Shown in pieces: positions 23,201 to 58,099 of a DNA stretch of 64,000 nucleotides (position 1 is the first letter of the stretch; each line of letters begins with the position of its first letter). Source of the stretch: an uncultured Candidatus Saccharibacteria bacterium (GTDB taxonomy: Bacteria; Patescibacteriota; Minisyncoccia; Phycocordibacterales; UBA918); assembly GCA_964402035.1 (NCBI GenBank), contig CAYOAM010000001.1:179558-243557 (forward strand), read 5' to 3'. A program made the translations under genes and the position numbers. The notes beneath the pieces are model-generated. The model searched no databases, was not told the origin of the DNA, and saw nothing but the letters and a program-made list of their open reading frames with translations.

Positions 23201-25586
23201 ATGGGAGAGTGGAGTACCTCTTGGTTTTGGGACGGAAGGTACGGTCGAGATCGAACGGTTTAGAATCTTTAATCCGCCCATTCTTGTGCCGGACAAAGAG
23301 GGGCTCGTGGTACGCACTTCAGTAAATCTTGACGGGGAAACAAAAGTACACACGTACAGAGAAGATCCTTTGGGAGCAGTACGTACGGTGATACAAGATA
23401 GTATAGAACGTGTAGGAAAACGCGGGACTCTTGTTGAAGTTTCCACAGTTGGCAACACCACCTCTATCTTCTATCCTGCTTCTGGTGCCACTTCGCCAGT
23501 TGACGGTCTTGCACGTCACTACCAGGCAACAAGTGACTGGAATACTGCACGTGACGCCACCGACGGTACTGCGGCTTCAGCAACGACTGGGGACGATCTT
23601 GCTGCAGCCTCACGCAAAGACTCTTCTGACCTCTATGGCATCTATCGTGGCTTTTTCCTTTTTGACACGGCGCCGATTACATCCGGTAACGAGGTCACAG
23701 CAGCAACACTTTCTCTCTATACCAACGCTGTTTCAAATGCTGACAATGACGGTGACGACTTTATCTCCATTGTTTCTACATCCACTCCCGCTTCAGATGC
23801 AAACATCACCACGGCTGACTACGACCAATGTGGCGCAACTGAAGCACATGATACGAGTGAGCGCAAAGACCTTACCGGTATGAGTGTGAGCGTATACAAA
23901 GACTGGTCGATGAATGCTACAGGTCGTAGCAGTATCAATGTCACCGGTATCTCAAAGTTCTGTGCGCGTGAAGGTCACGATCTTCTCGATACACCATACG
24001 CAGGGGGTCCCAATACCTCAAACTACTTCAACATCCTCTGGGCAGATACTGCAGGCACAACCCAAGATCCAACATTGACTGTGACCCACACCCCACTCCC
24101 ATCTCCAACAGGAGGCAACACCATCCAATACCGCTCATACACCTATGACGCAGTGGGAAACATCACCCAGATTGTAGAAAGTGGAAACACACTCGCCCGC
24201 GCCACCACCACATACACATACGACCCCCTCTATCGCCTCGTGAGTGCTTCGACCACTCAGGCAAGTAGCACCCCATACTCCGAAACATACGCATACAACG
24301 CCATCGGTAACCTCACCTATAAGTCAAACGTAGGTACGTACTCATATGGAGGGAGTAGTGGCTCTTCATACGCTAACCCACACGCTCCCACAAGCATCAA
24401 TGGCGTCACCTACGCATATGACAAGAATGGCAACCTAGCCTCCACCACCGACTCCAAGACCTATACCTGGGACTATGCCAATAGGTTAAGTAGCACTGTC
24501 ATAGGCAGTCTCACCACCACATACCAGTACAACCACGAAGGTCAACGAGTATACAAAACCAATGCCTCAGGTACGATAGCCTCACCCTATACCTTCTACG
24601 AAACCGACTCAGGAACAACCACCAAGCACATCTATACCCCTAGTGGTGATCTTCTTAGTACCATCGACAAGAGGGGTAGCACCACCACACGCTCCTATGC
24701 CCACACAGATCACTTGGGATCAACGGTCGCTATCACAAGCAATACCGGAGCAGTGTCACAAGTACTTGAATACTATCCGTATGGAGGAACACGTATAGAC
24801 CAGAAGTATGGCGCTACGAACCAACGCAATAGATACATAGGACAAGACAGTGACATAGAGAACTCGCTTATCTACCTCAATGCACGGTATTATGATGGAC
24901 AGAGAGGGCAGTTCTTGAGTCAGGATCCGGTGTTTAATGAGGTCGGACTCACGAAAGACGGGAAAGCAGTGATGAGGAATCCTCAAGCGATGAACAGCTA
25001 CTCGTATGCACAGAATAATCCTGTGGTGTATAAAGATCCGAGTGGGAGGATAGCGTTTGTACCACTTGTTCTTGGAATTGTGATGGCTTATGGTTATGTA
25101 CAAACGGCTGTTGACGTGTATCACTTTACCAATGTTTTAAGATACCCAGAAGCGTTCACAACCTCTGAAATGAATGAAGCTGGAGTCAAAGTGATACACG
25201 ACGCAGCAGGAATAGGTGCAGGACGACTTCTGGGGCCGGATGTTGGCTCAGGGATTGACACATTTGGAGCGATATATGACACAGTTAACTACGGAGTGAA
25301 AAAAATTGATGATTTATTCAAAAAAGTAAAAAATCTTTCAGTAGACGGAGGTCAAAATATACACCAAACTACACCAGCAATAGGAAACATTCCAAAACCA
25401 CAAGATAATAAAACATATATTAGTGCACCACCATCTACTACTCAACCAATACCAACGGCACAAAACTCTTCTAACTACAATTCAGCTACGAGTTATCTAA
25501 ACTCAGCACAGCGAGCACTAAATCGAGGTGATTTAAAATCAGCCGAAAGATTTATTGGCAAAGCAAGGAGATCTTTAGGTAATTAA
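17295..25586 (+). CDS. rhs: Giant Rhs/YD-repeat polymorphic toxin (Tc-toxin BC-like): signal peptide, SpvB domain, FG-GAP/integrin-like repeats, LamG/ConA-like lectin domain, YD repeats, RHS core and variable C-terminal toxin domain
   Basis: SpvB-like block (GAFTYDYPLMVPPGRNGREPSLVLSYNSRGG..GYGWSINIPFIERV). Six DxNGDGxxD propeller repeats (DVDINGDGFPDII, ADVNGDALTDVL, ADINGDGLPDLV, VDVNGDGLTDVV, EDVNGDGLVDLS, MDVNADRLPDEV). LamG block (IEAWVRPESQ...LIDELRVWSGVRTQAQIQ). YD repeats (YTYDAVGNITQI and others). Core end HTDHLGSTVAITS..YYPYGGTR...NARYYDGQRGQFLSQDPVF, then a unique 215-aa C-terminal domain. Confidence 0.9.
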   Translation: MNGSRQWCVSIGQSFNSVYRKTVSILLAVFLLLEPLTPLFAAEEVPQTTDAPATTSAPVDTTPVITVPRGTEPPPETNTSQTEDGVEFSVDGKTPEIKPPPKVEQPSEDTKKLEEVEPETESLMGMGGATQGSDRGQVRLSSKINEQDGAFTYDYPLMVPPGRNGREPSLVLSYNSRGGGDDDIFGYGWSINIPFIERVNKVGSEQIFTQSVFYSSLGGELVQIGSTTQYRPKVETGEFLKYVFANDLWKITDKSGTVYTFGSTTSSREDNAASSTQIAKWMLDEVRDTNDNYVKYTYYKADNRAYPATIVYTGSGATDGPFSISFVRSTTTSNSPRYESGFAATTTYRISEINTAVSGSWVRKYALAYGVGDNSVRTLLSGITESARTEGSTASTTMPATTFTYENTMSQTWTASSWALPEPFTQNGIDMGTRDVDINGDGFPDIIRFYRDATGTTIKRVYLNNKVDGWTLQSSWDWTYFTVPFSEYYAVGDSNARNDNGVRFADVNGDALTDVLIGYDGNGSSDTQKIYINYGAGWSYDSSWVLPVYFTRYYSSRVWDNGVRIADINGDGLPDLVSAQWNASSTLSTVFLNTGSGWSTTTSWVMPRAFTGAYDGVHQGKDLGTQLVDVNGDGLTDVVHGLKSTIFGNSKNTYLNTGSGWATSTLWDLPDYLIWADEAVSDIGYRFEDVNGDGLVDLSINNTFGGSIPDDDIYINTGAGWTNSIGNFPPYQFVTSTGDTGARFMDVNADRLPDEVYGNTSSSTGPVSSEETYLNRREVGDLLINVTEPKGGTLAITYQSSHEYRSAGSSTNPSLPFPITTVATTTKDAGFGTTETQAYLYEGGDYWFDATLFRDRKFAGFSTMTKTGPTQKERIYFHQGNETNVTSGEYADDSTKIGFPYRSEVADLANRPYKVSTSEWVTSDLGSSASFVKETQTIDLAYDGDSDYKARAVTYVYDDTNGLLTTKTEWGEVTPTTTNSQVVSTSSASIDLESGSSQLLGITDAAQSTLDILGSMTIEAWVRPESQPSVGGISVIASKWSASADQSYALYYENDAGTKKLVFRMDDTTTNPSKICSLSTTLSDATWYHVAVAYDAANASSTLYVNGSSIGYCTGLYTSILNSTTDFRVGAWQNTATHFFDGLIDELRVWSGVRTQAQIQASKDAELAGNESGLQAYWRLNNSSLDTTTNDNDLTLYGGPVYSTSTPLASVYTTAASRFTFTDAGVDKRTTQYTYASNTAAYVTLLQKETLLDRASSTIRENRFYYDTQALGTVTDGNMTKAERLVSGSSTYIDEEWTYNSYGLVSQSKDPRDKATTYVYDSYNLYPATTTNPVSHVLLKSYDYSSGKVATTTDPNSRVFVTVYDAFDRPIEEQIPDPVSGSPVTKATYSYIDTAGSNRIATTQNLNNSTSTESYDYFDGFGRKIQSRVESEASNTFAVRDFYYNSNGLLDRESLPYFNNGSSRTSSTTDAELYSIYTYDPLGRIATTTTAVGTTATVFDDWTERVVDALGNPKGFAYDAYGRLATTTEYNASTTYATAYLWDMTDKLATITDALGNIRAITYDKLGRRLTLQDLHASADTTFGTSSFAYDASGNLGTTTDPKGQTVVRTYDDVNRILTENYTGLAGTEISYTYDTCTNGKGKLCQAIRASSATTTYAYTPPGLLDIATTTVGTSTYTANYDYDRQGNQTQLTYPDASVASYTYNTGGQLEKVQYKESGGSYSDVVSDFNYGPHGMITYELYGNGVSTTKVYDEDQLYRLKTIITVTATGTVGYGGGGDELRELETSLTLGTDGTLLFAVEEEIGAIPEEEAILEEETATQEEVPDITPPLDTEDVGETLEEESPIGTSTDDGAVAATSSTPETAFSSTTEEVASSTPEDTFLESTSTIDMLLVGTTTATTTDLATSTTPILTGIMALIEGKTYEEIARIKSEEIAKIDMRGLYTKGDLDIEILDVAQIDGGIQVFARAWESGVPLGFGTEGTVEIERFRIFNPPILVPDKEGLVVRTSVNLDGETKVHTYREDPLGAVRTVIQDSIERVGKRGTLVEVSTVGNTTSIFYPASGATSPVDGLARHYQATSDWNTARDATDGTAASATTGDDLAAASRKDSSDLYGIYRGFFLFDTAPITSGNEVTAATLSLYTNAVSNADNDGDDFISIVSTSTPASDANITTADYDQCGATEAHDTSERKDLTGMSVSVYKDWSMNATGRSSINVTGISKFCAREGHDLLDTPYAGGPNTSNYFNILWADTAGTTQDPTLTVTHTPLPSPTGGNTIQYRSYTYDAVGNITQIVESGNTLARATTTYTYDPLYRLVSASTTQASSTPYSETYAYNAIGNLTYKSNVGTYSYGGSSGSSYANPHAPTSINGVTYAYDKNGNLASTTDSKTYTWDYANRLSSTVIGSLTTTYQYNHEGQRVYKTNASGTIASPYTFYETDSGTTTKHIYTPSGDLLSTIDKRGSTTTRSYAHTDHLGSTVAITSNTGAVSQVLEYYPYGGTRIDQKYGATNQRNRYIGQDSDIENSLIYLNARYYDGQRGQFLSQDPVFNEVGLTKDGKAVMRNPQAMNSYSYAQNNPVVYKDPSGRIAFVPLVLGIVMAYGYVQTAVDVYHFTNVLRYPEAFTTSEMNEAGVKVIHDAAGIGAGRLLGPDVGSGIDTFGAIYDTVNYGVKKIDDLFKKVKNLSVDGGQNIHQTTPAIGNIPKPQDNKTYISAPPSTTQPIPTAQNSSNYNSATSYLNSAQRALNRGDLKSAERFIGKARRSLGN

Positions 25587-25857: not shown

Positions 25858-27021
25858 GTGACCATCTCCTCCAAAACATACACCTGGGACTATGCCAACA
25901 GACTCAGTAGCACCGTCATAGGATCCTTAAGTACCTCATACCTCTATAACCACGAAGGTCAACGAGTATACAAAACCAATGCTTCAGGTACGATAGCTTC
26001 ACCGTATACCTTCTATGAGACAGACTCAAGTACCACCACCAAGCACATCTATACCCCCAGTGGTGATCTTCTTAGTACCATCGACAAGAGGGGTAGCACC
26101 ACCACACGCTCCTATGCCCACACAGATCACTTGGGATCAACGGTCGCTATCACAAGCAATACCGGAGCAGTGTCACAAGTACTTGAATACTATCCGTATG
26201 GAGGAACACGTATAGACCAGAAGTATGGCGCTACGAACCAACGCAATAGATACATAGGACAAGACAGTGACATAGAGAACTCGCTTATCTACCTCAATGC
26301 ACGGTATTATGATGGACAGAGAGGGCAGTTCCTTTCACAGGATCCGGTGTTTCTTGGGGATGCAGAAGCTCAGGACTTGAAATATCCTCAGAATCTAAAT
26401 AGTTATTCATACTGGACGAACAATCCTATTATTAATAAAGATCCAAGCGGAAAAGCGACATACGTTGATGTTAACGGGAAAAGAATTATAGGTTCAGACA
26501 CAAATGACCCGAATACCTACTATGAGCAAGATGACATCAATATGCTCAACACAAATGCCAACCAAATGGAAAACAACAAGCTCAATGCTGTGGAGTTCTA
26601 TAATAAAGTTAACTATGGTGGTGAATGGGACTACAAAGAAGGAGGGAGGGAGTATTATTTCTTTGAAGGGGAACTGGTCGATAAGGAAACCTATGGGAAT
26701 CGTCATTATGGCTATACGGGCAGCGCAGGAGCTTTCCCGGGCGTTGTATTGAAGGCGGGTGCAGGGGCCGCTTCAGTACGACATAATAAGGGGTTTGTTA
26801 AAAATTCTTCAATGTATCTTGATGAGCAAAAAGATACCAGAAACATTCAGATGGGTATTGATGCATATCAAAGTAAAAATAGCAAAAACACAGTCAGCCT
26901 TTCTACAAAACTAAAGAATGCTAATACATCGCTCAATTATGCCCTTGAACAAGCCAAAAAAGGGAACACATATGCTGCCACTCGAGCTATAAAGAGAGCT
27001 TTCAATCAATTGAACAATTGA
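25858..27021 (+). CDS. Orphan rhs-CT cassette 2: duplicated Rhs core 3' end (about 160 aa) fused to a distinct C-terminal toxin domain; GTG start only
   Basis: Nt 26041-26333 are more than 99% identical to 24623-24915 of the main rhs gene, with divergence starting exactly after QDPVF. No ATG start is present. Confidence 0.7.
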   Translation: MTISSKTYTWDYANRLSSTVIGSLSTSYLYNHEGQRVYKTNASGTIASPYTFYETDSSTTTKHIYTPSGDLLSTIDKRGSTTTRSYAHTDHLGSTVAITSNTGAVSQVLEYYPYGGTRIDQKYGATNQRNRYIGQDSDIENSLIYLNARYYDGQRGQFLSQDPVFLGDAEAQDLKYPQNLNSYSYWTNNPIINKDPSGKATYVDVNGKRIIGSDTNDPNTYYEQDDINMLNTNANQMENNKLNAVEFYNKVNYGGEWDYKEGGREYYFFEGELVDKETYGNRHYGYTGSAGAFPGVVLKAGAGAASVRHNKGFVKNSSMYLDEQKDTRNIQMGIDAYQSKNSKNTVSLSTKLKNANTSLNYALEQAKKGNTYAATRAIKRAFNQLNN

Positions 27022-29770: not shown

Positions 29771-29788
29771 GTATTGCATAATATTGTC

Positions 29789-30457
29789 ATGCCTCGCCAA
29801 GCACGTGTTGCGGTGAAAGATGTGGTGTACCATGTCATCAATCGTTCCAATGGTCGAGCGAGGATATTCGAGAAAGACAGTGACTATCAGCATTTTGAGT
29901 CACCGCTCACCGAAGCCCGGGAACTAACAGATATGCGTATCCTTGCATACTGTATTATGCCCAACCATTGGCATCTTATACTCCATCCACGTTCAGACAC
30001 CAACCTTGCTGAATTTATGAGTTGGCTCACCACGACTCATGTCCGCCAGTATCGCACTCGCACGCAAAGTATTGGCTATGGTCACCTCTATCAAGATCGA
30101 TACAAATCATTTCCCGTTGAGACCAATGACTATTGCGCAACACTGATCCGCTACATTGAACAGAACCCATTGCGCGCTCGACTCATTCAAAGAGCCGAAG
30201 ACTGGCAATGGTCAAGTCTCTGGAGACGAGAGCAGGGAAGCGATGCACAGAAGAGGCTGCTTGCGGAGTTACCCACTGACCTTCCTGCAAACTATCTGCA
30301 GTCTGTGAATGAGATACTTAAACCTAAAATAATAGAAAATATTCGTTACTCGGTGAACAAAGGAAAACCATATGGCTCAGAAAGGTGGGTGAGTACCATG
30401 GTGGGTGACTTTGCATTAAGGTATACGCTTCGTGGTCCAGGTCGTCCGAAGAAATAG
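29789..30457 (+). CDS. REP-associated tyrosine transposase (RAYT, IS200/Y1 HUH family)
   Basis: HUH motif HWHLILH and catalytic Tyr region (YIEQNPLRARL..EDWQWSS). Aligns by eye with the E. coli RAYT YafM pattern. Maximal ORF from TTG 29774. Confidence 0.85.
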   Translation: MPRQARVAVKDVVYHVINRSNGRARIFEKDSDYQHFESPLTEARELTDMRILAYCIMPNHWHLILHPRSDTNLAEFMSWLTTTHVRQYRTRTQSIGYGHLYQDRYKSFPVETNDYCATLIRYIEQNPLRARLIQRAEDWQWSSLWRREQGSDAQKRLLAELPTDLPANYLQSVNEILKPKIIENIRYSVNKGKPYGSERWVSTMVGDFALRYTLRGPGRPKK

Positions 30458-34553: not shown

Positions 34554-36686
34554 ATGAAGCGCGCACTTATGCGAATACCTATTGCTGATGCTACCAAAGC
34601 GGCTGTTGGTAAAAAAAAGCGGAGGGCACGCCCAATTGCAGAAGCCCCAACCTTTAGCGTTGGTATTGTGGATGGACGCATAAAACCATTGGCAGAACAT
34701 GAAGAAGTGACAAGTGTTGAGTCTGTAGTGGAAAAAAAAGTGGAAGAAAGAAAGAAAAAAACCGTTACGAAAAAAAAAGAAGAGCAGCTTGCAGTTTTGC
34801 CCCCACTCGAAACAACACCCATTGAGCAGGTGGTACCAGAACGCGTGGTCACCGTGCGTGCAGAAGGACGACCTTTTTTGGCTTCGCCAGGAACATTTTG
34901 GTCAGTACGCGTTGCTTGGTATACAGGACTTTTGTATGTACTTATTGGCGTGTCCGCTGCTATCCATGGCCTTGGTGGTATATATGTAGACTCATTATAT
35001 ACCGAGACAATGACCGTGGTGGGGCGTAGCGCTACCGCCTTAGTGCTTGAGCATGACATGGAGCGTCTGACTACACCGACTACGAGTGATCTAAACACGG
35101 AGCTCTCGTACACAACAGCACTTGCGCCTGAGGCAAGCGAACTCACACATCCAGTTACACTACACATAGAGTCGGTCCAAGGTGTGGTAGAGGGGATTGT
35201 ACAAAGCACGGTGAGCGTACTCGATGCACAACGTGTGGATCTATACCTGATACCCACCTCGAGTTTGACGCCATTGTTTTTAGGAACAGCAGAGCGCACG
35301 GCAGATACGCTCTGGTCCATAGATTGGTCTTCATTTGATGTTCCGAATGGTGCCTATACTTTACGCGCACGCATTACCAACGTGTATGGTACGTACGACG
35401 GAGCGACGAAGGAGGTGGTGGTACGCAATCGCTACGACAGTACTCCAACAGATGTAACCGCTGCGCTTGCATCAGAACAAATCGCAGGTATAAAAGAGCA
35501 GATTGCAGTCGTCGATGCTGAATTGCAAAAAGAAAATCCTGCACCAAGTCTCCGTACCGCACTCAGACCTTTTTTGGATACGACACAACCAGTCGTAGTT
35601 GCAGAGGAGGTTGGAACATCGACCGAGGAAATGAATCCACTACAAGAACTTTCGATGATGTATGAAGATACGTCGGCGATTTTTGTTGAGGCGACAACGT
35701 CTTCGTCGTCTATCGACATTGGGCAAGCAGAAGCGTTTGAAAAACTATTTGATACGTTGCTGGTACGATTGGCGGCATTTGTTCGTGCGGATAATAAGAG
35801 GGGTATGGATCGCACAAAGGAGGATATTGATACACTGGTCTTTACTACGCTTGAGAATCCGGCATTTGCAAATGCTACATCAACCGATCTCGAGGGACTC
35901 CGTAACGCGGTGCGTGATACGACGACGGCATTAACAGCACGTGTTATTGCTCGAGAGACGTTGGTCCGTGAACGTGTCGGGCCCGTGGTCTTGAGTGATA
36001 CTGATCGTGATGGTCTTACGGGATATGACGAAGTCACTAATTATGGCACGGATCCCTATATTGCCGACAGTGATCTCGATGGTTTTATCGATGGGTCTGA
36101 AATAGCTCTTGGCTATAATCCAAACAATGCAGAGAGTGAATCGACACTAAAATTTAGTGATCCAAGAACTTTTGCGGGGGCGCGCGATGCTCTTGTTTCG
36201 ATTACGATACCTGAAACAGCAGGTGAGGTCGCGACAACATCATCTACGCTCAAGATTTCTGGTACTGGGCTACCACATAGTTTTGTGACACTGCATATCT
36301 ACAGTGATCAACTCGTGGTCTCTGCGCGCACCAATAGTGATGGTGTCTGGAGTGTTGATAAAGATCTACCGTTGCAATATGGTAGCCATACTATTTATGC
36401 CACATTTTCAGACAATCATGGGGATTTGATTGCGGTTAGTGCACCGCAGAGTGTCACGCGAACCGCCGCAGGGTATTCATTTGCAGGTCGGACAACAAAA
36501 GCATCGGAACTATTTTCTGTGTATGTACCGATGGTACTATCTGCGAATACATTTTTACTCGTCAGTGCGCTTCTGGTGATTATTTGTGGGTTACTCTTAC
36601 TTATGATCAGTGTCTTTATCTCGCGTAAACAACAGGAGAGTGAGTCTGTCCCCGTGACATCGCTCGTCGCCACGCTATCCAGCTGA
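34554..36686 (+). CDS. Surface protein with basic cytoplasmic N-terminus, TM helix, acidic Ca-binding (thrombospondin-type-3/dockerin-like) repeats, Ig-like domain and C-terminal TM anchor
   Basis: KKKRR-rich N-terminus, TM helix (WYTGLLYVLIGVSAAIHGL). DTDRDGLTGYDEVTNYGTDPYIADSDLDGFIDGSE repeats. Big/Ig-like segment. C-terminal TM helix LLVSALLVIICGLLLLMISVFI. Confidence 0.55.
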   Translation: MKRALMRIPIADATKAAVGKKKRRARPIAEAPTFSVGIVDGRIKPLAEHEEVTSVESVVEKKVEERKKKTVTKKKEEQLAVLPPLETTPIEQVVPERVVTVRAEGRPFLASPGTFWSVRVAWYTGLLYVLIGVSAAIHGLGGIYVDSLYTETMTVVGRSATALVLEHDMERLTTPTTSDLNTELSYTTALAPEASELTHPVTLHIESVQGVVEGIVQSTVSVLDAQRVDLYLIPTSSLTPLFLGTAERTADTLWSIDWSSFDVPNGAYTLRARITNVYGTYDGATKEVVVRNRYDSTPTDVTAALASEQIAGIKEQIAVVDAELQKENPAPSLRTALRPFLDTTQPVVVAEEVGTSTEEMNPLQELSMMYEDTSAIFVEATTSSSSIDIGQAEAFEKLFDTLLVRLAAFVRADNKRGMDRTKEDIDTLVFTTLENPAFANATSTDLEGLRNAVRDTTTALTARVIARETLVRERVGPVVLSDTDRDGLTGYDEVTNYGTDPYIADSDLDGFIDGSEIALGYNPNNAESESTLKFSDPRTFAGARDALVSITIPETAGEVATTSSTLKISGTGLPHSFVTLHIYSDQLVVSARTNSDGVWSVDKDLPLQYGSHTIYATFSDNHGDLIAVSAPQSVTRTAAGYSFAGRTTKASELFSVYVPMVLSANTFLLVSALLVIICGLLLLMISVFISRKQQESESVPVTSLVATLSS

Positions 36687-36740: not shown

Positions 36741-39350
36741 ATGTCAGCCAAAAAACCCATTCATCACGATAAGATCATCATCCGAGGCGCTCGGACACAT
36801 AATCTCAAGAACATCTCGCTTGAAATGCCACGGAATGCCATGGTGGTTTTTACCGGTCTCTCTGGATCGGGCAAATCCTCGCTCGCTTTTGATACCATTT
36901 TTGCAGAAGGTCAGCGACGCTATGTGGAGTCTCTCTCTGCCTATGCGCGACAATTTTTGCGACAAATGCAGAAGCCTGATGTCGATGAGATATTGGGACT
37001 TTCTCCAGCGATATCGATCGACCAAAAGAGTAGGTCAAATAATCCACGATCCACGGTAGCTACGATCACTGAAATCTACGACTATCTTCGTATCCTGTAC
37101 GCGAGAGTCGGTCAGCCGTACTGTATCGATGTTGATATGCCGATCCAAAAATTGTCTCAAGATGAGATACTTTCTATTATTCTTTCTTCTATTGAGTCAC
37201 GCGATCTGGGTACTAAAGATGCGGAAGTGATGGGTGTGCCCATATCCAAGGCGCAGATCCGCGTGTATTCGCCGGTTGTGGTGGGTAGAAAAGGGGAATA
37301 CTACCAGCTTTTGTATGATCTATTGGGCAGGGGGTATGAAGAAGTGAAGATAGACGGCGAGATCAAGAAACTTCGCGAGCGTATAGTACTTCAAAAAACA
37401 AAACGTCACAGTATTGATGTGCTTGTTGATTCTATTTTTGTGAGCGAATTTGAGCACAATAAAAAAGATGCACATGAGAGACTGAGTGAGGCCGTCGAGC
37501 GAGCGCTTGCTGAATCTGGTGGCTTAGTAAAAATTGAAAATCCGTACGGGGAAGAGCGTACGCTTTCGGCAAAATTTATTTGCCCAGCAGATGGAACTTC
37601 TTTTCCTGAAGTTGAACCTCGACTCTTTTCGTTCAACTCTCCGTATGGTGCCTGTCCTGAATGCAACGGTCTTGGTATGGTGGGAATTTTTAATAATGAC
37701 GAATGTCCGGTTTGCCATGGTGCACGGTTGCGTAAAGAAGCCCTGCGCGTGTACCTCAAGAGTAAGAGTGACAAAGGTCTTGGTAAAAATATTGTCGATT
37801 TCACGAATATGACTATCCGTGAGGCGTATGATTTTATTGATGGACTCTCTCTCACCAAACAGCAGCACGATATTGCGTGGCCTGCACTTCGCGAGATTAT
37901 CGACCGCCTCGATTTTATGCTCAACGTAGGTATTGAGTACCTCACGCTCAATCGTCGTGCCAACACTCTTTCGGGTGGAGAAGCGCAGCGCATCCGTCTC
38001 GCCTCCCAGCTCGGTAGCGGGCTAGTGGGAGCACTCTATGTGCTTGATGAACCAACGATTGGACTTCATCAACGTGACAATGACCGCCTGATTAAAACGC
38101 TGACGCATCTCCGTGATCTGGGGAATACTATTCTGGTTGTTGAACACGACGAAGATACAATCTTTGCCTCGGACTATTTGGTTGATATCGGGCCGGGAGC
38201 TGGTATCCATGGAGGAGAAGTGGTGGTGTCTGGATATCTCAAAGATCTTCTGTCTGCGAAGAAAAATACTTCAGGTTCCTTGACTCTTTCGTACTTGCGC
38301 AATGAAAAGCGTATCGAAATACCCGATGAGCGCCGCTCGAGTGAAAAAGGTTCGATTAAAATCCGTGGCGGTAGCGCATTCAATATCAAAAACATGCACG
38401 TTGATATTCCGCTTGGACGCTTGATCGCACTTACGGGAGTATCAGGTTCGGGGAAGTCGACCTTTATGTACGAGATTTTGTACAAAAACCTTCAATCGCG
38501 CCTTGAGAAAAAGCATCGTACACCGCACACCTACAATGCATCCAGCTTTACTGGTTCCGAGTATCTCGGGCGCACGGTGCTCATTGATCAAAGTCCTATT
38601 GGTCGCACACCTCGATCAAACCCGGCAACGTATACGGGTACCTTCACCCATATTCGTGACATGTTTGCGACGTCTATTGAAGCAAAAGCGCGCGGGTGGA
38701 AAGCCGGACGCTTTTCTTTTAATGTGAAGGGCGGACGCTGTGAAGCATGCCAAGGGAATGGGATGATAGCGGTCGAGATGCATTTTCTTCCAACGGTATA
38801 TGTTGAGTGTGATGTCTGCGAGGGCAAGCGATTTACCAAAGAAACTCTTGAGGTGAAATACAAAGGCAAAAATATCAACGAAGTCTTGCATATGACGATC
38901 GAGGAAGCGGCCAATTTTTTTGCGGATATTCCAGCTATTCAAGAGCGCCTGCAATCATTGCAGGAGGTAGGGCTAGGATATTTGCAGCTTGGTCAAAGTG
39001 CAACGACACTCTCTGGTGGTGAGGCGCAACGTGTCAAAATAGCATCGGAGCTGTATCGACCACATACACAGAAAACAATCTACCTTCTCGATGAACCAAC
39101 GATCGGTCTTCATTATGCTGACGTACAAAAATTGATTGATATTTTGCAAGCACTTGTTGATAAAGGAAATACCGTACTCGTCATCGAGCACAACTTGGAC
39201 CTCATCAAGTGTGCGGATCACGTCCTCGACATTGGACCAGAAGGCGGGGTGGGTGGGGGACAGCTCGTGGCTAAAGGCACACCTGAAGAAGTCGCGAAGA
39301 CGAAAGGTTCTCATACCGGACACTACCTAAAAAAGGTCTTACGTGGATAG
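36741..39350 (+). CDS. uvrA: Excinuclease ABC subunit A
   Basis: [35 protein letters not shown]. Two ABC ATPase modules and Zn-finger Cys pairs. 869 aa, a compact form. Confidence 0.95.
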
Positions 39351-39352
39351 AA

Positions 39353-39380
39353 AAAGGAACGGTGTTACCGTCCCCAAGTA
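39353..39380. terminator. Bidirectional hairpin (ggaacgg-tgtta-ccgtccc); the U-tract lies on the minus strand, so it mainly terminates 39365-39619
   Basis: Seen directly. Confidence 0.45.
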
Positions 39381-39619
39381 TCGTATCTTTTTCTCTCTAC
39401 GTCGTGTAGCAAGGTGAGACCGCGTCGCTCATGGAGTAGATCATCCCATAATGGATCCGAATGAGACGCGGGGTATCTTCCATACGTTTCAAAAAACACA
39501 CGCTTCCAAAACGGTGAGCAGTAGGCTTCCGACCCACCATGCGGAGGGAAGCACCGAGGGATCAAAGAGAGAATCACTTCGAGTGGAGTTATAACAGGCG
39601 TGCTTAGTCCCGTGTCCAT
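39365..39619 (-). CDS. Small Cys/His-containing hypothetical protein (84 aa)
   Basis: Strong RBS AAAGGAGG 5 nt upstream of the ATG on the minus strand, with a terminator downstream. Confidence 0.45.
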   Translation of the reverse strand: MDTGLSTPVITPLEVILSLIPRCFPPHGGSEAYCSPFWKRVFFETYGRYPASHSDPLWDDLLHERRGLTLLHDVERKRYDTWGR

Positions 39620-39712: not shown

Positions 39713-39741
39713 GTTGACATGCTTCATGTATTAATGTATGG
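39713..39741 (+). promoter_or_regulatory. Sigma70-like promoter TTGACA-N17-TATGGT upstream of the sigma4/alpha-CTD gene
   Basis: Seen directly. An AGGAGG RBS follows at about 39768. Confidence 0.4.
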
Positions 39742-39780
39742 TCTCATTCGGAACAAGTGAACCAAGCCAGGAGGCAAACA

Positions 39781-40458
39781 ATGTGTGAAAGACATTTTGA
39801 GCTTACCACAACAATCTTCAGCGATCTTAGTGACTCAGAGGATCCTGAACGGACTCAAGAGAAGTTGCGTAGAATTTTTGAGTCACCACGGACTCAAAGG
39901 ACTGTATTCAGCTGTATTGAGTCCGCACTGGATCAACTCCCCTTGAGAGATTCGCAACTACTTCGATTGAAATACGGACTCGGGTGCGATCCACATTCGT
40001 ACTGTGCGGTGGGCCTTAAGCTGAGTCCACCCATCACGGGTAGTAGAGTGGGGGACGCTGTTAAAGAAGTTTTGTTCAAGCTTGTCAATACGGATCCAGC
40101 CAGTGAACTGTTTCAGTATTTCAGCAGTGAGGGTGCTTTTTCTCATCTGTCTCAAGTTGACACAAAAATCTGGGTAGACCGCATTAGGATGCGTGAACTC
40201 CTCAAGCGGTATAGAGATAATGCTGGGTTGGTTCCTCTTACTGATGATGAACTTGAACAGATTAACGTAGAGACATTGCCTGTTGGTACGAGATCCAGAA
40301 ATGTATTCAAATCTGAACGGGTTTGGACTATTCTGGATCTGATTTCCTTGCCTTATGGCTCCATCAGGGGACAGCTTCTGCGTATGCCAAACTTTGGGAC
40401 AAAGTCTCTTGTCGAACTTGAACTTGTCGTTTCTAGATTCGGTGTGCGCCTCACGTAG
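39781..40458 (+). CDS. Sigma-70 region 4-like HTH fused to an RNA polymerase alpha-subunit C-terminal-domain-like (alpha-CTD) module; no sigma2 or alpha-NTD
   Basis: LDQLPLRDSQLLRLKYGLG...VGLKLSPPITGSRVGDAVKEVLFKL resembles sigma region 4 (LD.L..RE..VL.LRFGL...TLEEVG..F.VTRERIRQIE..AL.KL). LPVGTRSRNVFKSERVWTILDLISLPYGSIRGQLLRMPNFGTKSLVELELVVSRFGV resembles RpoA alpha-CTD (LSVRSANCLK.E.I..IGDL......ELLK.PNLGKKSL.EIK.VL...GL). RBS AGGAGG before ATG 39781. The maximal ORF starts at GTG 39757. Confidence 0.55.
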   Translation: MCERHFELTTTIFSDLSDSEDPERTQEKLRRIFESPRTQRTVFSCIESALDQLPLRDSQLLRLKYGLGCDPHSYCAVGLKLSPPITGSRVGDAVKEVLFKLVNTDPASELFQYFSSEGAFSHLSQVDTKIWVDRIRMRELLKRYRDNAGLVPLTDDELEQINVETLPVGTRSRNVFKSERVWTILDLISLPYGSIRGQLLRMPNFGTKSLVELELVVSRFGVRLT

Positions 40459-40545
40459 CTTTTTGCTCTATGGATAAGTCGTTGTGAGATCACTCGCAAC
40501 GACCCTTTTTGTATAAAAAATAGAAGTATGTTTCTATAGACCTGT

Positions 40546-41781
40546 ATGGACAAATCCTATCTCGATAAAAAACAGATTCCCGATAGTCCTGGGGTGTATT
40601 TTTTTCTGGGGCCTCGTAAGGAGATCCTCTATATCGGCAAAGCGACCACACTTTCGTCTCGTGTGCGTAGTTATTTTGCGTCCGATATTGAAGAGAAGCG
40701 AAGCCCACTCATCAGAGACTTACTCGATGCAGCAAAAACGATTGAGTGGACCGTTACCGACTCGGTGCTCGAGGCCCTTATCCTTGAAGCAAATCTTATA
40801 CGGACGCACAAACCAAAACACAATTCTCGCGCAAAGGATGATAAAAGCTTTAACCATCTATTGATCACCAATGAGGAGTATCCGCGTGTGCTTGTGGTAC
40901 GTGGAAAGGATATTGCGCAAAAGTATACTGCAGAACAGATACGTTCAGTTTTCGGTCCTTTTACAAGCGGAGGTTTACTTCGCGAAGCTCTGAAGATTGT
41001 TCGCAAGATTTTCAAATTCTATGACACCGAAAAGCCAGTTGGTACATCTCATTCCAAGATGGAGAAAGGAAAGATAGATTTCAATCGTCAAATTGGTATA
41101 TATCCAAAGGATGAAGATAAAGCAACATATCAGAAAACGATTTCACAGATTGAGTTACTATTTCAAGGAAAAAAGAAAAAATTGCTGACTGAACTTGAGC
41201 GAGAGATGAAGCAGCTCGCAAAAGCAGAACGATTCGAGGAAGCGAATATAGTCAAAATGAAAATATTTGCCCTAACACACATCCAAGATGTCGCGCTGAT
41301 TAAAGCGCGGGATCTCTCGCACAGAGACGATCGTTCGGTGCGTTTTGAGGCATATGATGTTGCGCATATTAGTGGAAAGGCTATGGTGGGAGTCATGACG
41401 GTTGTTGAGCGAGGTGAGATGCAGAAGGATTCGTATCGCAAATTTAAGTTAAAGACGGTAGATAGTTCAAATGATCCTGCCGCTTTGGCTGAAATATTGG
41501 AACGGAGATTGGCGCACGATGAGTGGCCATTGCCTGCATGTATCGTGGTCGATGGTGGTTTGATTCAAAAGCGCAGGGCAGAGACAGTACTTCGATCACA
41601 CGAAGTACATATTCCGGTTGTAGCTGTGGTAAAGGATGAATACCATCGACCAAAGAAGATACTTGGACCAGACTCTCTGGTAGCGCTCTATGAACGCGAT
41701 ATCTTACTTGCCAATGCTGAAGCGCATCGCTTTTCTGTAGGGTATCACCGCAACCTCCGTGATCGCATAAAGCCTCAGTGA
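40546..41781 (+). CDS. uvrC: Excinuclease ABC subunit C, short form lacking the C-terminal HhH domain
   Basis: GIY-YIG domain (GVYFFLGPRKEILYIGKATTLSSRVRSY). UVR domain (LTELEREMKQLAKAERFEEANIVKMKI). RNase-H-like endonuclease domain (FEAYDVAHISGKAMVGVMTVV..RKFKLKTV). Confidence 0.85.
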   Translation: MDKSYLDKKQIPDSPGVYFFLGPRKEILYIGKATTLSSRVRSYFASDIEEKRSPLIRDLLDAAKTIEWTVTDSVLEALILEANLIRTHKPKHNSRAKDDKSFNHLLITNEEYPRVLVVRGKDIAQKYTAEQIRSVFGPFTSGGLLREALKIVRKIFKFYDTEKPVGTSHSKMEKGKIDFNRQIGIYPKDEDKATYQKTISQIELLFQGKKKKLLTELEREMKQLAKAERFEEANIVKMKIFALTHIQDVALIKARDLSHRDDRSVRFEAYDVAHISGKAMVGVMTVVERGEMQKDSYRKFKLKTVDSSNDPAALAEILERRLAHDEWPLPACIVVDGGLIQKRRAETVLRSHEVHIPVVAVVKDEYHRPKKILGPDSLVALYERDILLANAEAHRFSVGYHRNLRDRIKPQ

Positions 41782-53859: not shown

Positions 53860-56800
53860 ATGGCGGAACATCAACCCGTAGAAGCAACTGCGTCAGTCGA
53901 AATGCCCGCAAACCGCGCTCGCACGCTCCTCATCTTTGGTGCAATTAGTGTGTTTGCAGCCATGGTGTTTGGACTGCTGTACCTCTTTGTTATTGCACCG
54001 GCTGCACCTGGTAGTAGTCTCGGTTGGTTCCTGTTCTCATTTGCAACGGGTATTACGATGATCATCATGCCCTGCACTCTGCCGTTGGCATTTGTGATTG
54101 TGCCGCTATCGATGGGTAAGGGGCTTGTGAAGGGGATCTCGATGGCACTAGCTTTTGGGCTCGGTATCACGATCACGCAGAGTCTCTACGGTGTTGCAGC
54201 TGCTGTTTTGGGAAAGCTCGCTATCGGAGCGTTGGGTGCGGATCTTGAAGTCGTCAAAAACTGGGTGTATTTGGTTGCGGGTATCTTTGCGCTCGTTTTT
54301 GCTTTGAGTGAAATTGGTCTCATGAAGTTCCGCATGCCGACCTATACGGGTGCTGCACCAGCTTTTATTCAGCAACGCCGTGATGCTTTTAAAGCATTTT
54401 TGTTGGGGCTTTTCTTAGGAAACATTGGTATTGGTTGTCCACATCCTGCTACACCGTTATTGCTCATAGAAGCAGCATCAAGTGGCGATGTGCTGTATGG
54501 GTGGCTTTTGTTCCTCGTACATGCAAGTGGCCGTGTCTTGCCGCTCTTGTTGTTGGCATTTCTTGCTATTTTGGGAGTCAACGGTCTTAATTTCTTGGTT
54601 ACAAAAAAAGACGCTGTCGAACGAGCGACTGGTTGGGCGATGGTGTTTGTAGCAGGATTTATCCTTACTTTAGGTCTATTCACGCACGCATGGTGGGTTA
54701 ACTCAGGAATTCACACGATGTTGGAAAAAGTGACGCAGGAAAGTTACTTCAACGCACGATTTAACGACATGCTCAATTCGGCTGTTGCTCATAATCATGG
54801 TCTTGAGACAGGTACAGCAATGTTTGGCTTGCCGTTGTGGCTTGGAAACTGGTTCTTGGTTTCGGTATGGATACTACCTATCTGGTGGTGGTGGTTTAGA
54901 AAGCGTAAGTCATTGATGCAGAGTCCTGTTTTTCGTATCCAGGCACTTGAAGGAAGAATCGATGAACTTGAGAAAGAACGCCGACAGGTGGAGTCTATGG
55001 TAGCGCTTGATGAGGCTGAAGTTTCTTTTGATCTCAAAGTACACGAGGCCGAGATTGATCGATTGGAACAAATTCGACGAGCTGAGGAGGAGAAGGTGCA
55101 CTATTCAGAGAAGGGAGTATTGCAAAGCCCCATTGCTCAAACATATGAGATGAAGATGCTCTATACCGTCCGTAATTATCTCTTTGTTCTTTCAGTATTT
55201 ATTGTACTTGTCTTCGCGTACTTTTTGCCGACCAACTTCTATCTTGCGTCTATTTCTGGTATGGGTGGCCACGCTCATACACCAGTGGCTGTCTCAACAA
55301 GTACTACTCAGGCACTCATCCCGTTTTCGACTGATACTGCAAATCTTCCCGATGCGACATTGACACAAACAATCACCCTACAAGACGGTGGTACCTACAA
55401 GGTCAGTGCGGGGTATGTGAAAAGACAGTTAGGAAATCGTGTGCTGCGTATGATGGCGTACAACGGTTCGGTTCCGGGACCATTTATCCATGCTCCAGAA
55501 GGATCGACCGTGAACATTGAGTTCACCAATAACACCGACATCGATCAGACGATACATTCACACGGTGTGCGTGTTGACAATCTTTCAGATGGAGTCCCTG
55601 GGGTGACACAAGTGGCCGTTAAGCCCGGTGAGACGTACACCTACACTATTAACTTTAAGGATGTTGGAGTCTATTGGTTCCACCCGCATACGCGCGATGA
55701 TTATGGGCAAGAGTTAGGATTGTATGGAAATTATATTGTTGAGCCTTCTGATGAAAAATATTATTCACCTGTCAATCGAGAAATTCCACTCGTCATCGAT
55801 GACATATTGATTGAGAACGAGCGTATTGCTCCTTTCTATAAAGAATATACCGATCACGCGCTCTTGGGACGATTTGGAAATGAATTTTTGGTGAATGGCG
55901 CTGAAAACTTCACGACCAATGTAAAGATGGGTGAGGTAGTGCGCTTTATGGTGACGAACGTATCCAATGCTCGCACCTACAACCTCTCAATTCCTGGTCT
56001 CAAGATCAAACTTGTCGGGTCTGATGCAGGAAAATATGAGCGTGAGACATCTGTAGATTCTTTGCTACTCTCACCGGCAGAACGCGCGATTGTTGAAGTA
56101 TATTTTGAAAAGCCAGGTGTATTCACGCTGACGCACACAGATCCTTCAAACTCCGTAAAGCTTGCAACTTTTGGTGTATCGAGTGAAGAACGGGCAGACG
56201 TATCGTATGCAAAGGAATTTGCAGTCATGCGAACTGATACTTCAGCGACCACAACATATGCAGCAATACGCGCTATGCTTCCTGCTCTCCCACAAAAGAA
56301 TGTATTGATGACGGTGGATCTTGGTATGAATGCGGCAGCAATGAACCATGGTGCGCACGCACACGCCATGCCAGGTATGATGACCAGTGCAAGTACGAGC
56401 AATCCGTCAGGCATTCAGTGGGATGATGTAGGAAACACTGACACCATCAATACGACACAAAATGTGACGTGGAAATTGGTAGATTTGGAAAATAATCTCG
56501 TCAATGATGCCATCAACTGGAAGTTCAAGGTAGGGGAATTCGTGAAAGTGCGCTTCACGAATGACAAAATGGCGATGCATGTGATGCAGCATCCCATACA
56601 CTTCCACGGACAACGCTTTGTCGTACTGGCAAGGAATGGAGTACCCAATGACAACCTTGTCTGGAAAGATACAGCTTTGGTATTACCTGGCGAGACTGTC
56701 GATCTTGTTGTTGATATGAGCAATCCAGGTCTCTGGATGGCGCATTGTCATATCGTAGAGCACCTTCACGGCGGCATGATGCTGAACTTCCGCGTTGAAG

Positions 56801-57591: not shown

Positions 57592-57592
57592 T

Positions 57593-58075
57593 ATGAACAA
57601 ATATTTAGTCTTAGGTATTGTACTCATCGCGATCGTGGTAGGCGGTATTGTTTGGAAACAGTACGGTGCATCGGATGTAAATAAGGCGATGGACACCGGT
57701 GTCGTGCGTGAGATTACGGTGATATCAAAAAAGCTTGAATGGCGTTTTGATCCTGCAGTCATTGCGGTTGAGCAGGGTGATCGAGTCAAATTGAAAGTAA
57801 TCAATGAAGATGATTTTGATCACGGTGTTGCTATTGATGCGTTTGGTGTATCGCAACGTCTACCGGCGAATGCCACTATCGATATTGAATTCGTAGCGAC
57901 AAAATCAGGTGAGTTTCCATTCTATTGCTCAGTCTCGTGTAGTGACAGTAAATCAACTGGAAATCTTCCCGGAGGAGTTGTGCAAACAGGACCGTTTGCC
58001 GGTACCGTCCAAGGACACTTCGATCAAATCGGCAAATTTGTCGTATCGCTCGCAAAAACGGTGACGGGACAATAA
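57593..58075 (+). CDS. Cupredoxin-like copper-binding protein, membrane-anchored
   Basis: N-terminal TM helix. FDHGVAIDAFGV...GEFPFYCSVSC matches the cupredoxin_1 pattern (GEYEFHC..C). Confidence 0.5.
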   Translation: MNKYLVLGIVLIAIVVGGIVWKQYGASDVNKAMDTGVVREITVISKKLEWRFDPAVIAVEQGDRVKLKVINEDDFDHGVAIDAFGVSQRLPANATIDIEFVATKSGEFPFYCSVSCSDSKSTGNLPGGVVQTGPFAGTVQGHFDQIGKFVVSLAKTVTGQ

Positions 58076-58099
58076 TATCAATATTAATAACGGAGCTAT

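Follow-up and report, generated by a model that had tools for sequence, protein, structure and literature searches.

A stand-alone protein of Patescibacteria joins a degenerate sigma region 4 module to an alpha-CTD module and belongs to a rare family

Results

The uvrA-uvrC locus and the fusion gene

The window, i.e., the whole 64-kb stretch of DNA that was analyzed, carries a gene for a 225-aa protein (P0001, in the following the fusion protein) in the spacer between uvrA and uvrC. In this Patescibacteria (CPR) protein a sigma region 4 module and an alpha-CTD module are combined in a single stand-alone gene (Table 1). The open reading frame, its place between the two uvr genes and the presence of its own expression signals had been predicted by the initial annotation, and all of them were recovered.

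Table 1. Features of the fusion gene and its surroundings (coordinates refer to the window)
Feature	Coordinates	Strand	Remarks
uvrA, upstream neighbor	36741..39350	+	UvrA_inter and ABC domains
Terminator-like hairpin of the minus-strand 84-aa ORF	39375-39355		hairpin scan
Small 84-aa ORF in the uvrA-uvrC spacer	39365..39619	-	diverges from the fusion-gene promoter region
Promoter-like site TTGACA-17 nt-TATGGT	39714..39742	+	38 nt upstream of ATG; 10/12 consensus matches
AT-rich near-palindrome CATGTATTAATGTATG	39725-39740		within the spacer of the promoter-like site
RBS AGGAGG	39770..39775	+	5 nt before ATG 39781; read from sequence
Fusion-protein CDS (P0001)	39781..40458	+	ATG 39781, stop 40456-40458, 225 aa
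N-terminal helical leader, aa 1-38	39781..39894	+	hydrophobic motif up to F13, conserved in the family
Sigma-70 region-4-like helix-turn-helix domain, aa 39-116	39895..40128	+	degenerate
Helical linker, aa 117-147	40129..40221	+	runs into the acidic motif LTDDELEQI
Alpha-CTD-like helix-hairpin-helix domain, aa 148-225	40222..40455	+	Pfam and residue alignment
Intrinsic-terminator-like hairpin and T-run	40478..40513	+	11 pairs, 6 G-C; then CCTTTTTGTA
uvrC, downstream neighbor	40546..41781	+	short 411-aa form: GIY-YIG, UVR, RNase-H-like

Because of the ribosome binding site directly ahead of it, ATG 39781 is favored as start over the in-frame GTG 39757 further upstream. The promoter-like site is correctly positioned and plausible, but statistically unproven, as the promoter scan found one site where 2.1 were expected in shuffled sequences. 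A repeat search of this promoter region yielded no convincing operator and just the short near-palindrome, which is only suggestive as a regulatory target of the fusion protein. Given the terminator-like hairpin, which begins 20 nt past the stop codon, the fusion gene would be monocistronic. The identical protein was found on contigs assembled from four samples, and the four assemblies do not differ in the CDS. The gene is chromosomal, with a host-like GC content (46.0% vs 45.5%) and no prophage genes identified nearby.

In most related loci UvrA is encoded upstream of uvrC and shares 63-87% identity with the UvrA of the window, while in three others the UvrA homologue is more distant and lies downstream of it. 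The order uvrB-uvrA-uvrC-ddl is kept in 64 related Patescibacteria species, in many of which uvrA and uvrC almost abut, and in other genomes unrelated genes occupy the spacer. At the loci L021 (E 2.5e-4), L019 (E 0.018) and L009 (E 0.1) of related genomes, the spacer holds weak homologues of the small minus-strand 84-aa ORF. No relative of the fusion protein was found near uvrC in any of the 64 species (retrieved sequence, up to 6 kb on each side). The uvrA-uvrC spacer is thus a variable insertion site and the fusion gene a lineage-specific insertion. The uvr neighborhood gives no functional signal and does not tie the gene to nucleotide excision repair.

Domain architecture and predicted fold

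The two-module architecture proposed in the initial annotation was upheld, with the sigma4 and the alpha-CTD module each established independently of the other. The profile search suggested there supported one half only: Pfam RNA_pol_A_CTD matches above its cutoff (E 1.9e-5, 24.8 bits, barely over 23.8), but the match to Sigma70_r4_2 is insignificant (E 0.2), so that HMMER by itself could not confirm the sigma4 call. As also predicted, neither sigma region 2 nor the alpha N-terminal domain was detected in profile searches, with no match to Sigma70_r2 even at E 10 and no Pfam match to RNA_pol_L or RNA_pol_A_bac. Because both are lacking, the fusion protein qualifies neither as sigma factor nor as split RpoA.

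The AF2 model is confident across both domains, with a mean pLDDT of 84.7 for a model that was built from an alignment of family members and whose sigma4 fold is therefore partly inherited from the relatives. The leader forms two helices (H3-12 and H22-32), and F13 is invariant in the family alignment. Around aa 121-130 the pLDDT falls to about 57, which suggests that this part of the linker may be a flexible hinge. The motif LTDDELEQI (aa 152-160), directly ahead of the alpha-CTD core, is an acidic motif typical of the family.

The alpha-CTD-like domain

Homology of the C-terminal half to alpha-CTD is also detected by phmmer against PDB alpha-CTD chains (E down to 5e-4). In E. coli numbering, which was cross-checked solely against three sigma and alpha sequences from the database (P0028, P0069 and P0055), the residues R171, N174, K177, N204, G206, K208 and S209 correspond to alpha R265, N268, K271, N294, G296, K298 and S299. 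The 265 determinant is thus present with all its DNA-contact residues, and the domain carries a net charge of +3. By this residue pattern, the DNA-binding signature is retained by the alpha-CTD half only.

These DNA-contact residues are shared with the alpha-CTD of RpoA (PF03118), from which the domain differs in other respects. The 261 determinant is altered (D259 to T, E261 to P), four residues are inserted at about aa 191-194, at the 287 determinant, an insertion found in this protein alone, and the domain is preceded by the family-specific acidic linker motif LTxEEL. In addition, the N-terminal dimerisation/assembly domain of alpha is missing and the gene lies outside the rpoA operon.

The sigma region 4-like domain

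The sigma4 half was identified by other comparisons. With hhalign, the single sequence of the fusion protein matched seven genuine sigma factors with 94.5% probability (E 8e-8) in region 4 only. In an exhaustive phmmer search of 1.84 billion proteins it matched region 4 of P0028 (E 3.2e-4), a complete sigma factor with r1.2, r2, r3 and r4. The domain has the helix-turn-helix fold of region 4 of primary (group 1) sigma-70 factors (PF04545), to which it is clearly homologous. In contrast to these factors, the protein lacks regions 1.2, 2 and 3 and with them sigma2 core binding and -10 recognition.

The DNA-reading part of the domain is replaced. The recognition helix reads T86-G-S-R-V-G-D92, so that the -35-reading residues R584/E585/R586/R588/Q589 have become G/S/R/G/D and R586 alone is kept. 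The replacements are R584G, E585S, R588G, Q589D, K593E, R596F, R599V and R603P, which also removes the basic patch for activator contact. The module has a net charge of -1, compared to +5 for true sigma4, +4 to +7 for most relatives and +1 for P0005. It is the only net-acidic sigma4-like domain of the family, and P0001 and P0005 have the two most degenerate recognition helices. What is retained are the hydrophobic core and groove positions (F563Y, I565L, L598L, L607L, F610Y). The initial annotation had envisaged binding to the -35 element and titration of activators that target sigma4; both are unlikely for this protein, because the reading and contact residues are lost and the domain is acidic.

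A rare family of sigma4/alpha-CTD proteins

A word-indexed homology search returned the fusion protein itself only and its profile version two more family members; the relatives became visible in the exhaustive phmmer search. At least 14 cluster representatives, including the fusion protein, have the order sigma4-then-alpha-CTD, the others being P0002, P0003, P0005, P0010, P0014, P0015, P0020-22, P0024, P0029, P0031 and P0032. Matches over aa 26-224 were obtained with P0002 (E 4.3e-15), P0003 (9e-10), P0005 (1.2e-8) and P0010 (5e-7), and over the full length the relatives range from E 4e-15 to 4e-4 at 24-31% identity; 31% is the best identity of any relative among the 1.84 billion representatives. 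The homology is collinear throughout leader, sigma4, LTxEEL linker and alpha-CTD. Among 12 full-length relatives, Sigma70_r4 scores above the Pfam threshold in 10 and RNA_pol_A_CTD in 11, and a search with the family profile finds both RpoA (E about 1e-11) and primary sigma factors (E about 2e-5). The family thus consists of a domain derived from primary-sigma region 4 joined to one or two helix-hairpin-helix domains of the alpha-CTD type.

The sigma4 modules of the family most resemble region 4 of primary sigma factors, down to the RHPSRS tail, and the relatives retain the hallmarks RRFGIG...VTRERVRQIE...LRKLRHPSRS. The fusion protein has the module order, the leader with the conserved Phe, the linker motif and the size (190-290 aa) in common with its relatives. 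However, it is a divergent member, as most relatives have a basic sigma4 domain that keeps R586, R588 and Q589, whereas its own is acidic and is accompanied by the unique four-residue insertion in the alpha-CTD. Some relatives, unlike the fusion protein, have two alpha-CTDs or are extended at the N-terminus.

The same modules also occur in other arrangements. Ten more cluster representatives show the reverse order, with alpha-CTD repeats followed by sigma4, and 10 consist of alpha-CTD arrays only. Outside RpoA such arrays reach up to 12 copies, often together with sigma4. This wide re-use of the alpha-CTD outside RpoA suggests an under-appreciated family of DNA-binding modules.

The family is rare and sporadically distributed. 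In the three genomic contexts seen (P0001, P0005 and P0015) the fusion gene stands alone; that of P0015 lies on a phage-like contig with genes for a phosphatase, endonuclease VII and RNase H. No relative was found with P0001 as single-protein query in GTDB genomes or with P0015 in IMG/VR. The fusion protein gave no match to PHROGs and PADLOC profiles at E up to 1 and none by tblastn against 50,697 phage records, in which the canonical relative P0010 matched rpoD region 4 only. The initial annotation was aware of no characterization of this architecture. No description of it was found in the literature searched; given the number of representatives it is not unique.

Discussion

Proposed function

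In the natural promoter complex the end of sigma4 (R603) adjoins the alpha 261 determinant. The order of the fusion, in which the C-terminus of sigma4 leads to the N-terminus of the alpha-CTD, appears compatible with this natural side-by-side arrangement on -35/UP DNA. This geometric argument is supported by PDB 3n97, which contains alpha-CTD and sigma region 4 on UP/-35 DNA and is among the structural matches of the fusion protein. In the typical members of the family both modules look DNA-binding. We read these members as probable single-chain readers of promoter-upstream-like DNA, i.e., as transcription regulators, because the order sigma4-linker-alpha-CTD fits the -35/UP arrangement and they have no means of building a holoenzyme.

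For the fusion protein of the uvrA-uvrC locus, the reading we prefer, and to which we would give an even chance, is that of a functional, lineage-specific accessory DNA-binding regulator of this family. We infer its DNA binding, its regulatory role and its targets from the residue pattern. The alpha-CTD-like domain most likely binds A/T-rich DNA, because all minor-groove-contact residues are kept and the domain is basic. The sigma4-derived domain is most likely a structural or protein-contact module, because the residues for DNA reading and activator contact are lost and the domain is acidic. Most simply, the protein would act at A/T-rich sites upstream of promoters, possibly its own among them, as a repressor or modulator. 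The lost basic residues of the sigma4 half could equally reflect decay of the N-terminal half.

For the family as a whole we tentatively suggest, as a possibility well short of an even bet, that sigma4/alpha-CTD proteins form a distinct class of regulators, in which the pair of sigma4 and alpha-CTD that RNA polymerase places on -35/UP DNA is hard-wired in one chain. That the two modules recur together in either order (14 and 10 representatives) would then stem from a functional partnership and not from chance shuffling. Such mimics of the promoter-upstream complex might occupy their sites without polymerase, or dock to the beta flap and lend RNA polymerase an extra upstream anchor, and phages and accessory chromosomal genes would re-program transcription with them.

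Alternative explanations

Rather unlikely, though the strongest of the alternatives for the fusion protein itself, is docking to RNA polymerase in the manner of sigma appropriation. The sigma4 domain would still have the surface by which it clamps the tip helix of the beta flap, and would replace or compete with region 4 of the housekeeping sigma. As a consequence, polymerase would gain an extra alpha-CTD-like DNA anchor and be redirected to another promoter class, or -35-dependent promoters would be inhibited. The preserved core and groove positions together with the lost DNA-contact residues are the pattern expected if protein contact rather than DNA contact is under selection, yet the same hydrophobic positions are also required for folding and do not discriminate. 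The closeness of the family's sigma4 modules, tail included, to primary-sigma region 4 fits docking as well, and binding to the beta flap is already known from minimal sigma-like HTH proteins of phages (PMC7824862). A phage origin, as in the relative P0015, would suit host takeover, but the fusion gene itself is chromosomal with host-like GC content and no identified prophage genes nearby.

The titration idea of the initial annotation, taken more broadly, makes the protein a decoy whose sigma4-like and alpha-CTD-like surfaces soak up phage anti-sigma proteins, alpha-CTD-modifying proteins or host regulators. A mimic of two surface modules that cannot assemble into RNA polymerase would be suited to this, the distribution is sporadic and accessory, and the phage association of the family, seen in P0015, shows the modules to be involved in phage-host interplay. 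However, the surfaces that are usually targeted are changed: the basic patch K593/R596/R599/R603 of sigma4 is gone, D259 and E261 of the 261 determinant are replaced and the 287 determinant is interrupted by the insertion. There were also no matches in the defense-system library (PADLOC). We therefore regard a decoy as improbable.

We think no better of the chances that the gene is a decaying relic, i.e., a once-canonical sigma4/alpha-CTD gene with a degenerating N-terminal half and little or no current function. The degenerate recognition helix, shared with P0005, and the net-acidic sigma4, shared with no other member, would be expected of a relic, as would a singleton lineage with no close relative among the searched representatives and no orthologue at the uvrA-uvrC locus of 64 related species. 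Against this, the 225-codon reading frame is intact with ribosome binding site, promoter-like site and terminator, the AF2 fold is confident in both domains, every DNA-contact residue of the alpha-CTD is preserved and the sequence is identical in the assemblies of four samples.

A role as excision-repair accessory, with the alpha-CTD-type (HhH)2 supplying in trans the domain missing from UvrC, is very improbable. The fusion gene does lie immediately upstream of a 411-aa uvrC without the C-terminal (HhH)2 domain, and in Pfam the alpha-CTD presumably shares its helix-hairpin-helix clan with the HHH_2/HHH_5 families. But the short UvrC is typical of the whole lineage, with UvrC alignments of about equal length in the 64 Patescibacteria species, and in none of these was a relative of the fusion protein found in the sequence retrieved around uvrC. 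This comparison largely refutes the complementation of an HhH-less UvrC. Moreover, the spacer holds unrelated genes elsewhere or is almost absent, the fusion gene has its own promoter-like site and terminator, and the genes for the relatives P0005 and P0015 have no uvr genes nearby.

A split or truncated RNA polymerase alpha, with the alpha-CTD encoded apart from the gene for the N-terminal domain, has next to nothing in its favor beyond the fact that rpoA models are the best sequence-library matches, and was rejected. The rpoA equivalogs reach 11-27 bits, far below their cutoffs of 228-434, and cover just the C-terminal 60-70 residues. The N-terminal 120 residues resemble sigma4 and not what would be left of an alpha N-terminal domain, and the protein can be aligned over its whole length with the sigma4/alpha-CTD family. 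The gene lies outside the ribosomal-protein/rpoA operon and, far from being universal, has no counterpart at the locus in the 64 related species; the 64-kb window contains no canonical rpoA or rpoD.

Comparison with known systems

To our knowledge, almost nothing is known about transcription control in Patescibacteria, and a regulator of this kind would give a handle on it. Provided that they bind to DNA upstream of promoters or to the beta flap, the proteins would be a compact, naturally occurring tool that competes with or re-targets bacterial RNA polymerase, built purely from the polymerase's own promoter-contact modules. For the gene described here the pay-off is limited, as it is a divergent singleton with one half apparently degenerate.

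In the ternary complex of 3n97 and in class I/II activation complexes the same two modules are juxtaposed as in the fusion protein. There, however, they come from two subunits of RNA polymerase and their binding recruits the polymerase, whereas the fusion protein unites them in one chain without a link to the catalytic core. In addition, the fusion protein lacks the contact residues of sigma4 (R603) and of the alpha-CTD (D259/E261).

Phage minimal sigma-like HTH proteins are likewise small, carry a single promoter-contact module of RNA polymerase and are thought to redirect the host polymerase (PMC7824862). Matches in BFVD further include stand-alone proteins of uncultured phages annotated as "RNA polymerase alpha subunit, C-terminal" (A0A6J7WD60, A0A6J5S254, A0A6J5L490). 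Each of these phage proteins has one module, whereas the fusion protein has both and is encoded on a Patescibacteria chromosome. The single-module proteins are found in phage genomes, and the family member P0015 likewise lies on a phage-like contig. If the proposed function holds, the sigma4/alpha-CTD proteins would be new RNA polymerase-mimicking regulators beside the phage minimal sigmas and the sigma-appropriation factors.

Domain composition of the protein

The initial annotation had proposed that sigma region 4 and alpha-CTD modules appear fused in one 225-aa protein, and hhalign, phmmer and Pfam RNA_pol_A_CTD together supported this fusion. With HMMER profiles only one of the two domains was recovered: RNA_pol_A_CTD matched aa 157-213 (E 1.9e-5) with 24.8 bits, barely exceeding the cutoff of 23.8 bits, whereas the Sigma70_r4_2 match was insignificant (E 0.2, 25 residues).

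The alpha-CTD half can be regarded as a solid assignment. In phmmer searches against PDB sequences nearly all chains matched were alpha-CTDs (best E 5e-4), and the NCBIfam rpoA equivalogs aligned with the final 60-70 residues only, with scores far under their cutoffs. The AF2 model, calculated from a 9-sequence family alignment, has a mean pLDDT of 84.7. Alignment with the alpha subunit of E. coli and further alpha subunits showed that the DNA-binding '265 determinant' is complete, as R171, N174, K177, N204, G206, K208 and S209 correspond to alpha R265, N268, K271, N294, G296, K298 and S299. The domain is basic (+3, pI 10.2).

The sigma-4 half is real yet degenerate. When the single sequence was compared by hhalign with seven aligned genuine sigma factors, aa 39-105 paired with region 4 (94.5% probability, E 8e-8). 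Exhaustive phmmer against 1.84 billion representatives matched region 4 of P0028 (E 3.2e-4; 37% identity over 71 residues in the pairwise comparison), a complete sigma factor with Pfam regions 1.2, 2, 3 and 4. The hydrophobic core and groove positions of sigma-70 are kept (F563Y, I565L, L598, L607, F610Y), whereas the recognition helix residues are replaced (R584 to G, E585 to S, R588 to G, Q589 to D) and the basic residues that serve activators and alpha-CTD as a contact patch are gone (K593E, R596F, R599V, R603P). Residue numbers are those of the E. coli sequence and were checked against two sigma factors from the database, P0028 and P0069. With a net charge of -1 (pI 5.6) the domain is acidic, compared with +5 in both database sigma factors measured and +4 to +7 in the family, except for the relative P0005 (+1). 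The lost DNA-reading residues and the acidic charge make canonical -35 reading unlikely, and the earlier view of this module as a -35 binder is unlikely to hold for this protein.

Sigma region 2 was not detected by Pfam, NCBIfam or hhalign against sigma factors, nor the alpha N-terminal domain by Pfam and NCBIfam profiles, as had been noted before. Hence the protein can neither serve as sigma factor nor assemble as RNAP alpha.

A family of sigma4/alpha-CTD proteins

A word-indexed homology search returned no protein besides the query, whereas 39 of the 1.84 billion representatives reached E <= 1e-3 in the exhaustive search. Collinear relatives are 24-31% identical to the target; they include the full-length proteins P0002, P0003, P0005, P0010, P0014, P0015, P0024 and P0029 (190-290 aa), and P0021 and P0022, which carry N-terminal extensions. 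Common to them are a leader at the N-terminus in which one Phe is invariant, a region 4 resembling that of primary sigma factors (RRFGIG...RVRQIE...LRKLRHPSRS), a linker with the acidic motif LTxEEL, and either one or two alpha-CTDs. Among 12 aligned members Pfam detected Sigma70_r4 in 10 (best E 1e-15) and RNA_pol_A_CTD in 11 (best E 2e-28), and the family profile recovered RpoA (E ~1e-11) as well as primary sigma factors (E ~2e-5).

Domain order was classified with local HMMs for all 39 representatives. Sigma4 precedes the alpha-CTD in 14, including the target, the order is reversed in 10, with alpha-CTD repeats before sigma4, and another 10 consist of alpha-CTDs alone, arrayed in up to 12 copies; Pfam confirmed the architecture of P0004, P0007 and P0012. 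Since both modules occur together in either order, their pairing is recurrent and not a one-off. The tandem arrays and the alpha-CTD-then-sigma4 proteins come from public metagenomes (e.g., P0004, P0009, P0013, P0017, P0038, P0007, P0012, P0019, P0026), and no description of them was found in the literature.

The P0005 gene stands alone on an ordinary bacterial contig. The P0015 contig is called phage-like because the gene belongs to a run of small genes that all point in one direction and include those for a phage phosphatase (phrog_335, E 2e-50), an endonuclease VII and an RNase H. The endonuclease VII-like gene two genes downstream of P0015 also matches, less strongly, the PHROGs entries 'Srd anti-sigma factor' and 'decoy of host sigma70', probably through a common nuclease domain.

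Both domains are textbook and their combination is already in public sequence databases. In the full-text literature, with the most relevant review outside the coverage, no description or characterisation of the sigma4 plus alpha-CTD architecture was found, in agreement with the initial remark that no characterisation was known to the annotator.

Putative function

Via R265, N268, G296, K298 and S299, alpha-CTD grips A/T-rich UP elements in their minor groove. Region 4.2 of sigma both reads the -35 hexamer and clamps the tip of the beta flap. Judged by these residues, the target seems to keep the DNA-binding signature in its alpha-CTD half only, and the half derived from sigma4 more likely has a structural or protein-contact role. 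We rate it as a putative regulator put together from RNAP promoter-contact modules. The reading we prefer, which we give about an even chance, is a small DNA-binding regulator that would act at A/T-rich sites through the alpha-CTD-like domain. An AT-rich near-palindrome in the spacer of its own promoter-like site is a possible site or operator, no more than a candidate. A sigma4 mimic that docks on RNAP is rather unlikely, and a decoy or a decaying relic, equally probable to us, would each be more doubtful still.

Transcription specialists would find the architecture and the broader pairing of alpha-CTD with sigma4 of interest; the interest of the target itself is limited, as it is a divergent singleton with one degenerate half.

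Gene and locus

Features of the window and of one related locus
Feature	Position	Strand	Remarks
Target CDS	39781-40458	+	ATG 39781, stop 40456-40458; 225 aa
AGGAGG	5 nt 5' of ATG	+
Promoter-like site	39714-39742	+	TTGACA-17 nt-TATGGT, 5' of target gene
Near-palindrome	39725-39740		CATGTATTAATGTATG
Hairpin, then T-run	starts 20 nt past target stop	+	11 bp
uvrC	40546-41781		411 aa; GIY-YIG, UVR, RNase-H-like domains
84-aa ORF	39365-39619	-	uvrA-uvrC spacer
Terminator-like hairpin of 84-aa ORF	39375-39355
710-aa protein	34554-36686		between uvrB and uvrA
IS200-like Y1 transposase	29774-30457		~2 kb upstream of uvrB
2,763-aa protein	17295-25586		SpvB, FG-GAP, Laminin_G_3, DUF6443, RHS-repeat
387-aa protein	25858-27021		Ntox44 toxin domain
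Dockerin type I, cohesin, bacterial Ig-like proteins	135-857, 3527-5263, 5951-6700
Copper-handling cluster	53860-60433		unusually long multicopper oxidase (1,243 aa), cupredoxin-like protein, P-type ATPase with HMA domain
Gene two downstream of P0015 (locus L006)	6875-7516		endonuclease VII PHROGs match, E ~4e-21

With its AGGAGG, promoter-like motif and 3' hairpin the gene resembles a monocistronic unit of its own. The promoter-like site and RBS annotated initially are present, the former correctly placed, with a statistically unremarkable site count (1 seen, 2.1 expected in shuffles). The identical protein occurs on contigs from four samples (longest 452,957 bp, ERZ3430527 NODE_5) with zero nucleotide differences in the CDS, and the GC content of the gene (46.0%) matches the window (45.5%).

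The gene does lie between uvrA and uvrC, as described before. Judged by its UvrC relatives, the genome belongs to Patescibacteria (Paceibacteria/Minisyncoccia), near MAGs labelled Candidatus Kaiserbacteria, with best matches of 62-70% identity; UvrA reaches 87% identity to related loci. Among the loci of 64 related species, most of those long enough to show it share the gene order uvrB-(Ig-domain membrane protein)-uvrA-uvrC-(ugd)-ddl. The uvrA-uvrC spacer varies from ~10 nt to ~1.2 kb with unrelated ORFs that differ between genomes, and none of the 64 uvrC loci carries a family member in the sequence retrieved; the target is hence a lineage-specific insertion into a variable spacer, and its uvr-adjacent position carries no functional signal.

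UvrC of the window lacks the C-terminal (HhH)2 DNA-binding domain, and an alpha-CTD-type HhH domain might complement it in excision repair. However, tblastn matches of like length (~400-410 aa) in the 64 species suggest that the (HhH)2 loss is lineage-wide, and such an accessory role is highly improbable. Least probable of all is that the target is a separately encoded part of a split RpoA, because its N-terminal half resembles sigma, the gene is not in an rpoA operon context and related species have no counterpart at this locus; neither rpoA nor rpoD was found within the 64-kb window.

The 84-aa ORF may be a small conserved gene, with weak look-alikes of matching position and orientation in related genomes (L021, E 2.5e-4; L019, E 0.018; L009, E 0.1) that show the motif W..F....G..P.G.D.RWD.L. 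The 710-aa protein has an apparent membrane anchor, a faint Big_13 match and weak homologues (27-39% identity) that occupy this position in many related genomes; a surface protein thus seems to be a stable part of the uvr cluster. The transposase indicates mobile-element activity nearby. Elsewhere in the window, the adjacent RHS-repeat and Ntox44 genes resemble a polymorphic-toxin cassette of the RHS type, here within a small CPR genome, and one would not expect the cellulosome-type assembly modules in Patescibacteria.

Comparison with RNA polymerase

On promoters, the alpha-CTD at the proximal UP subsite contacts the C-terminal end of sigma4 (PDB 3n97, which was among the structural matches). 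The sigma4-linker-alpha-CTD order of the family would reproduce this promoter geometry in a single chain, and canonical members could plausibly read -35/UP-like DNA with one chain that has no link to the catalytic core. The target differs from alpha in the '261 determinant', the contact site for sigma R603, which is altered (D259 to T, E261 to P), and in the '287 determinant', where it has 4 extra residues found in no other protein compared.
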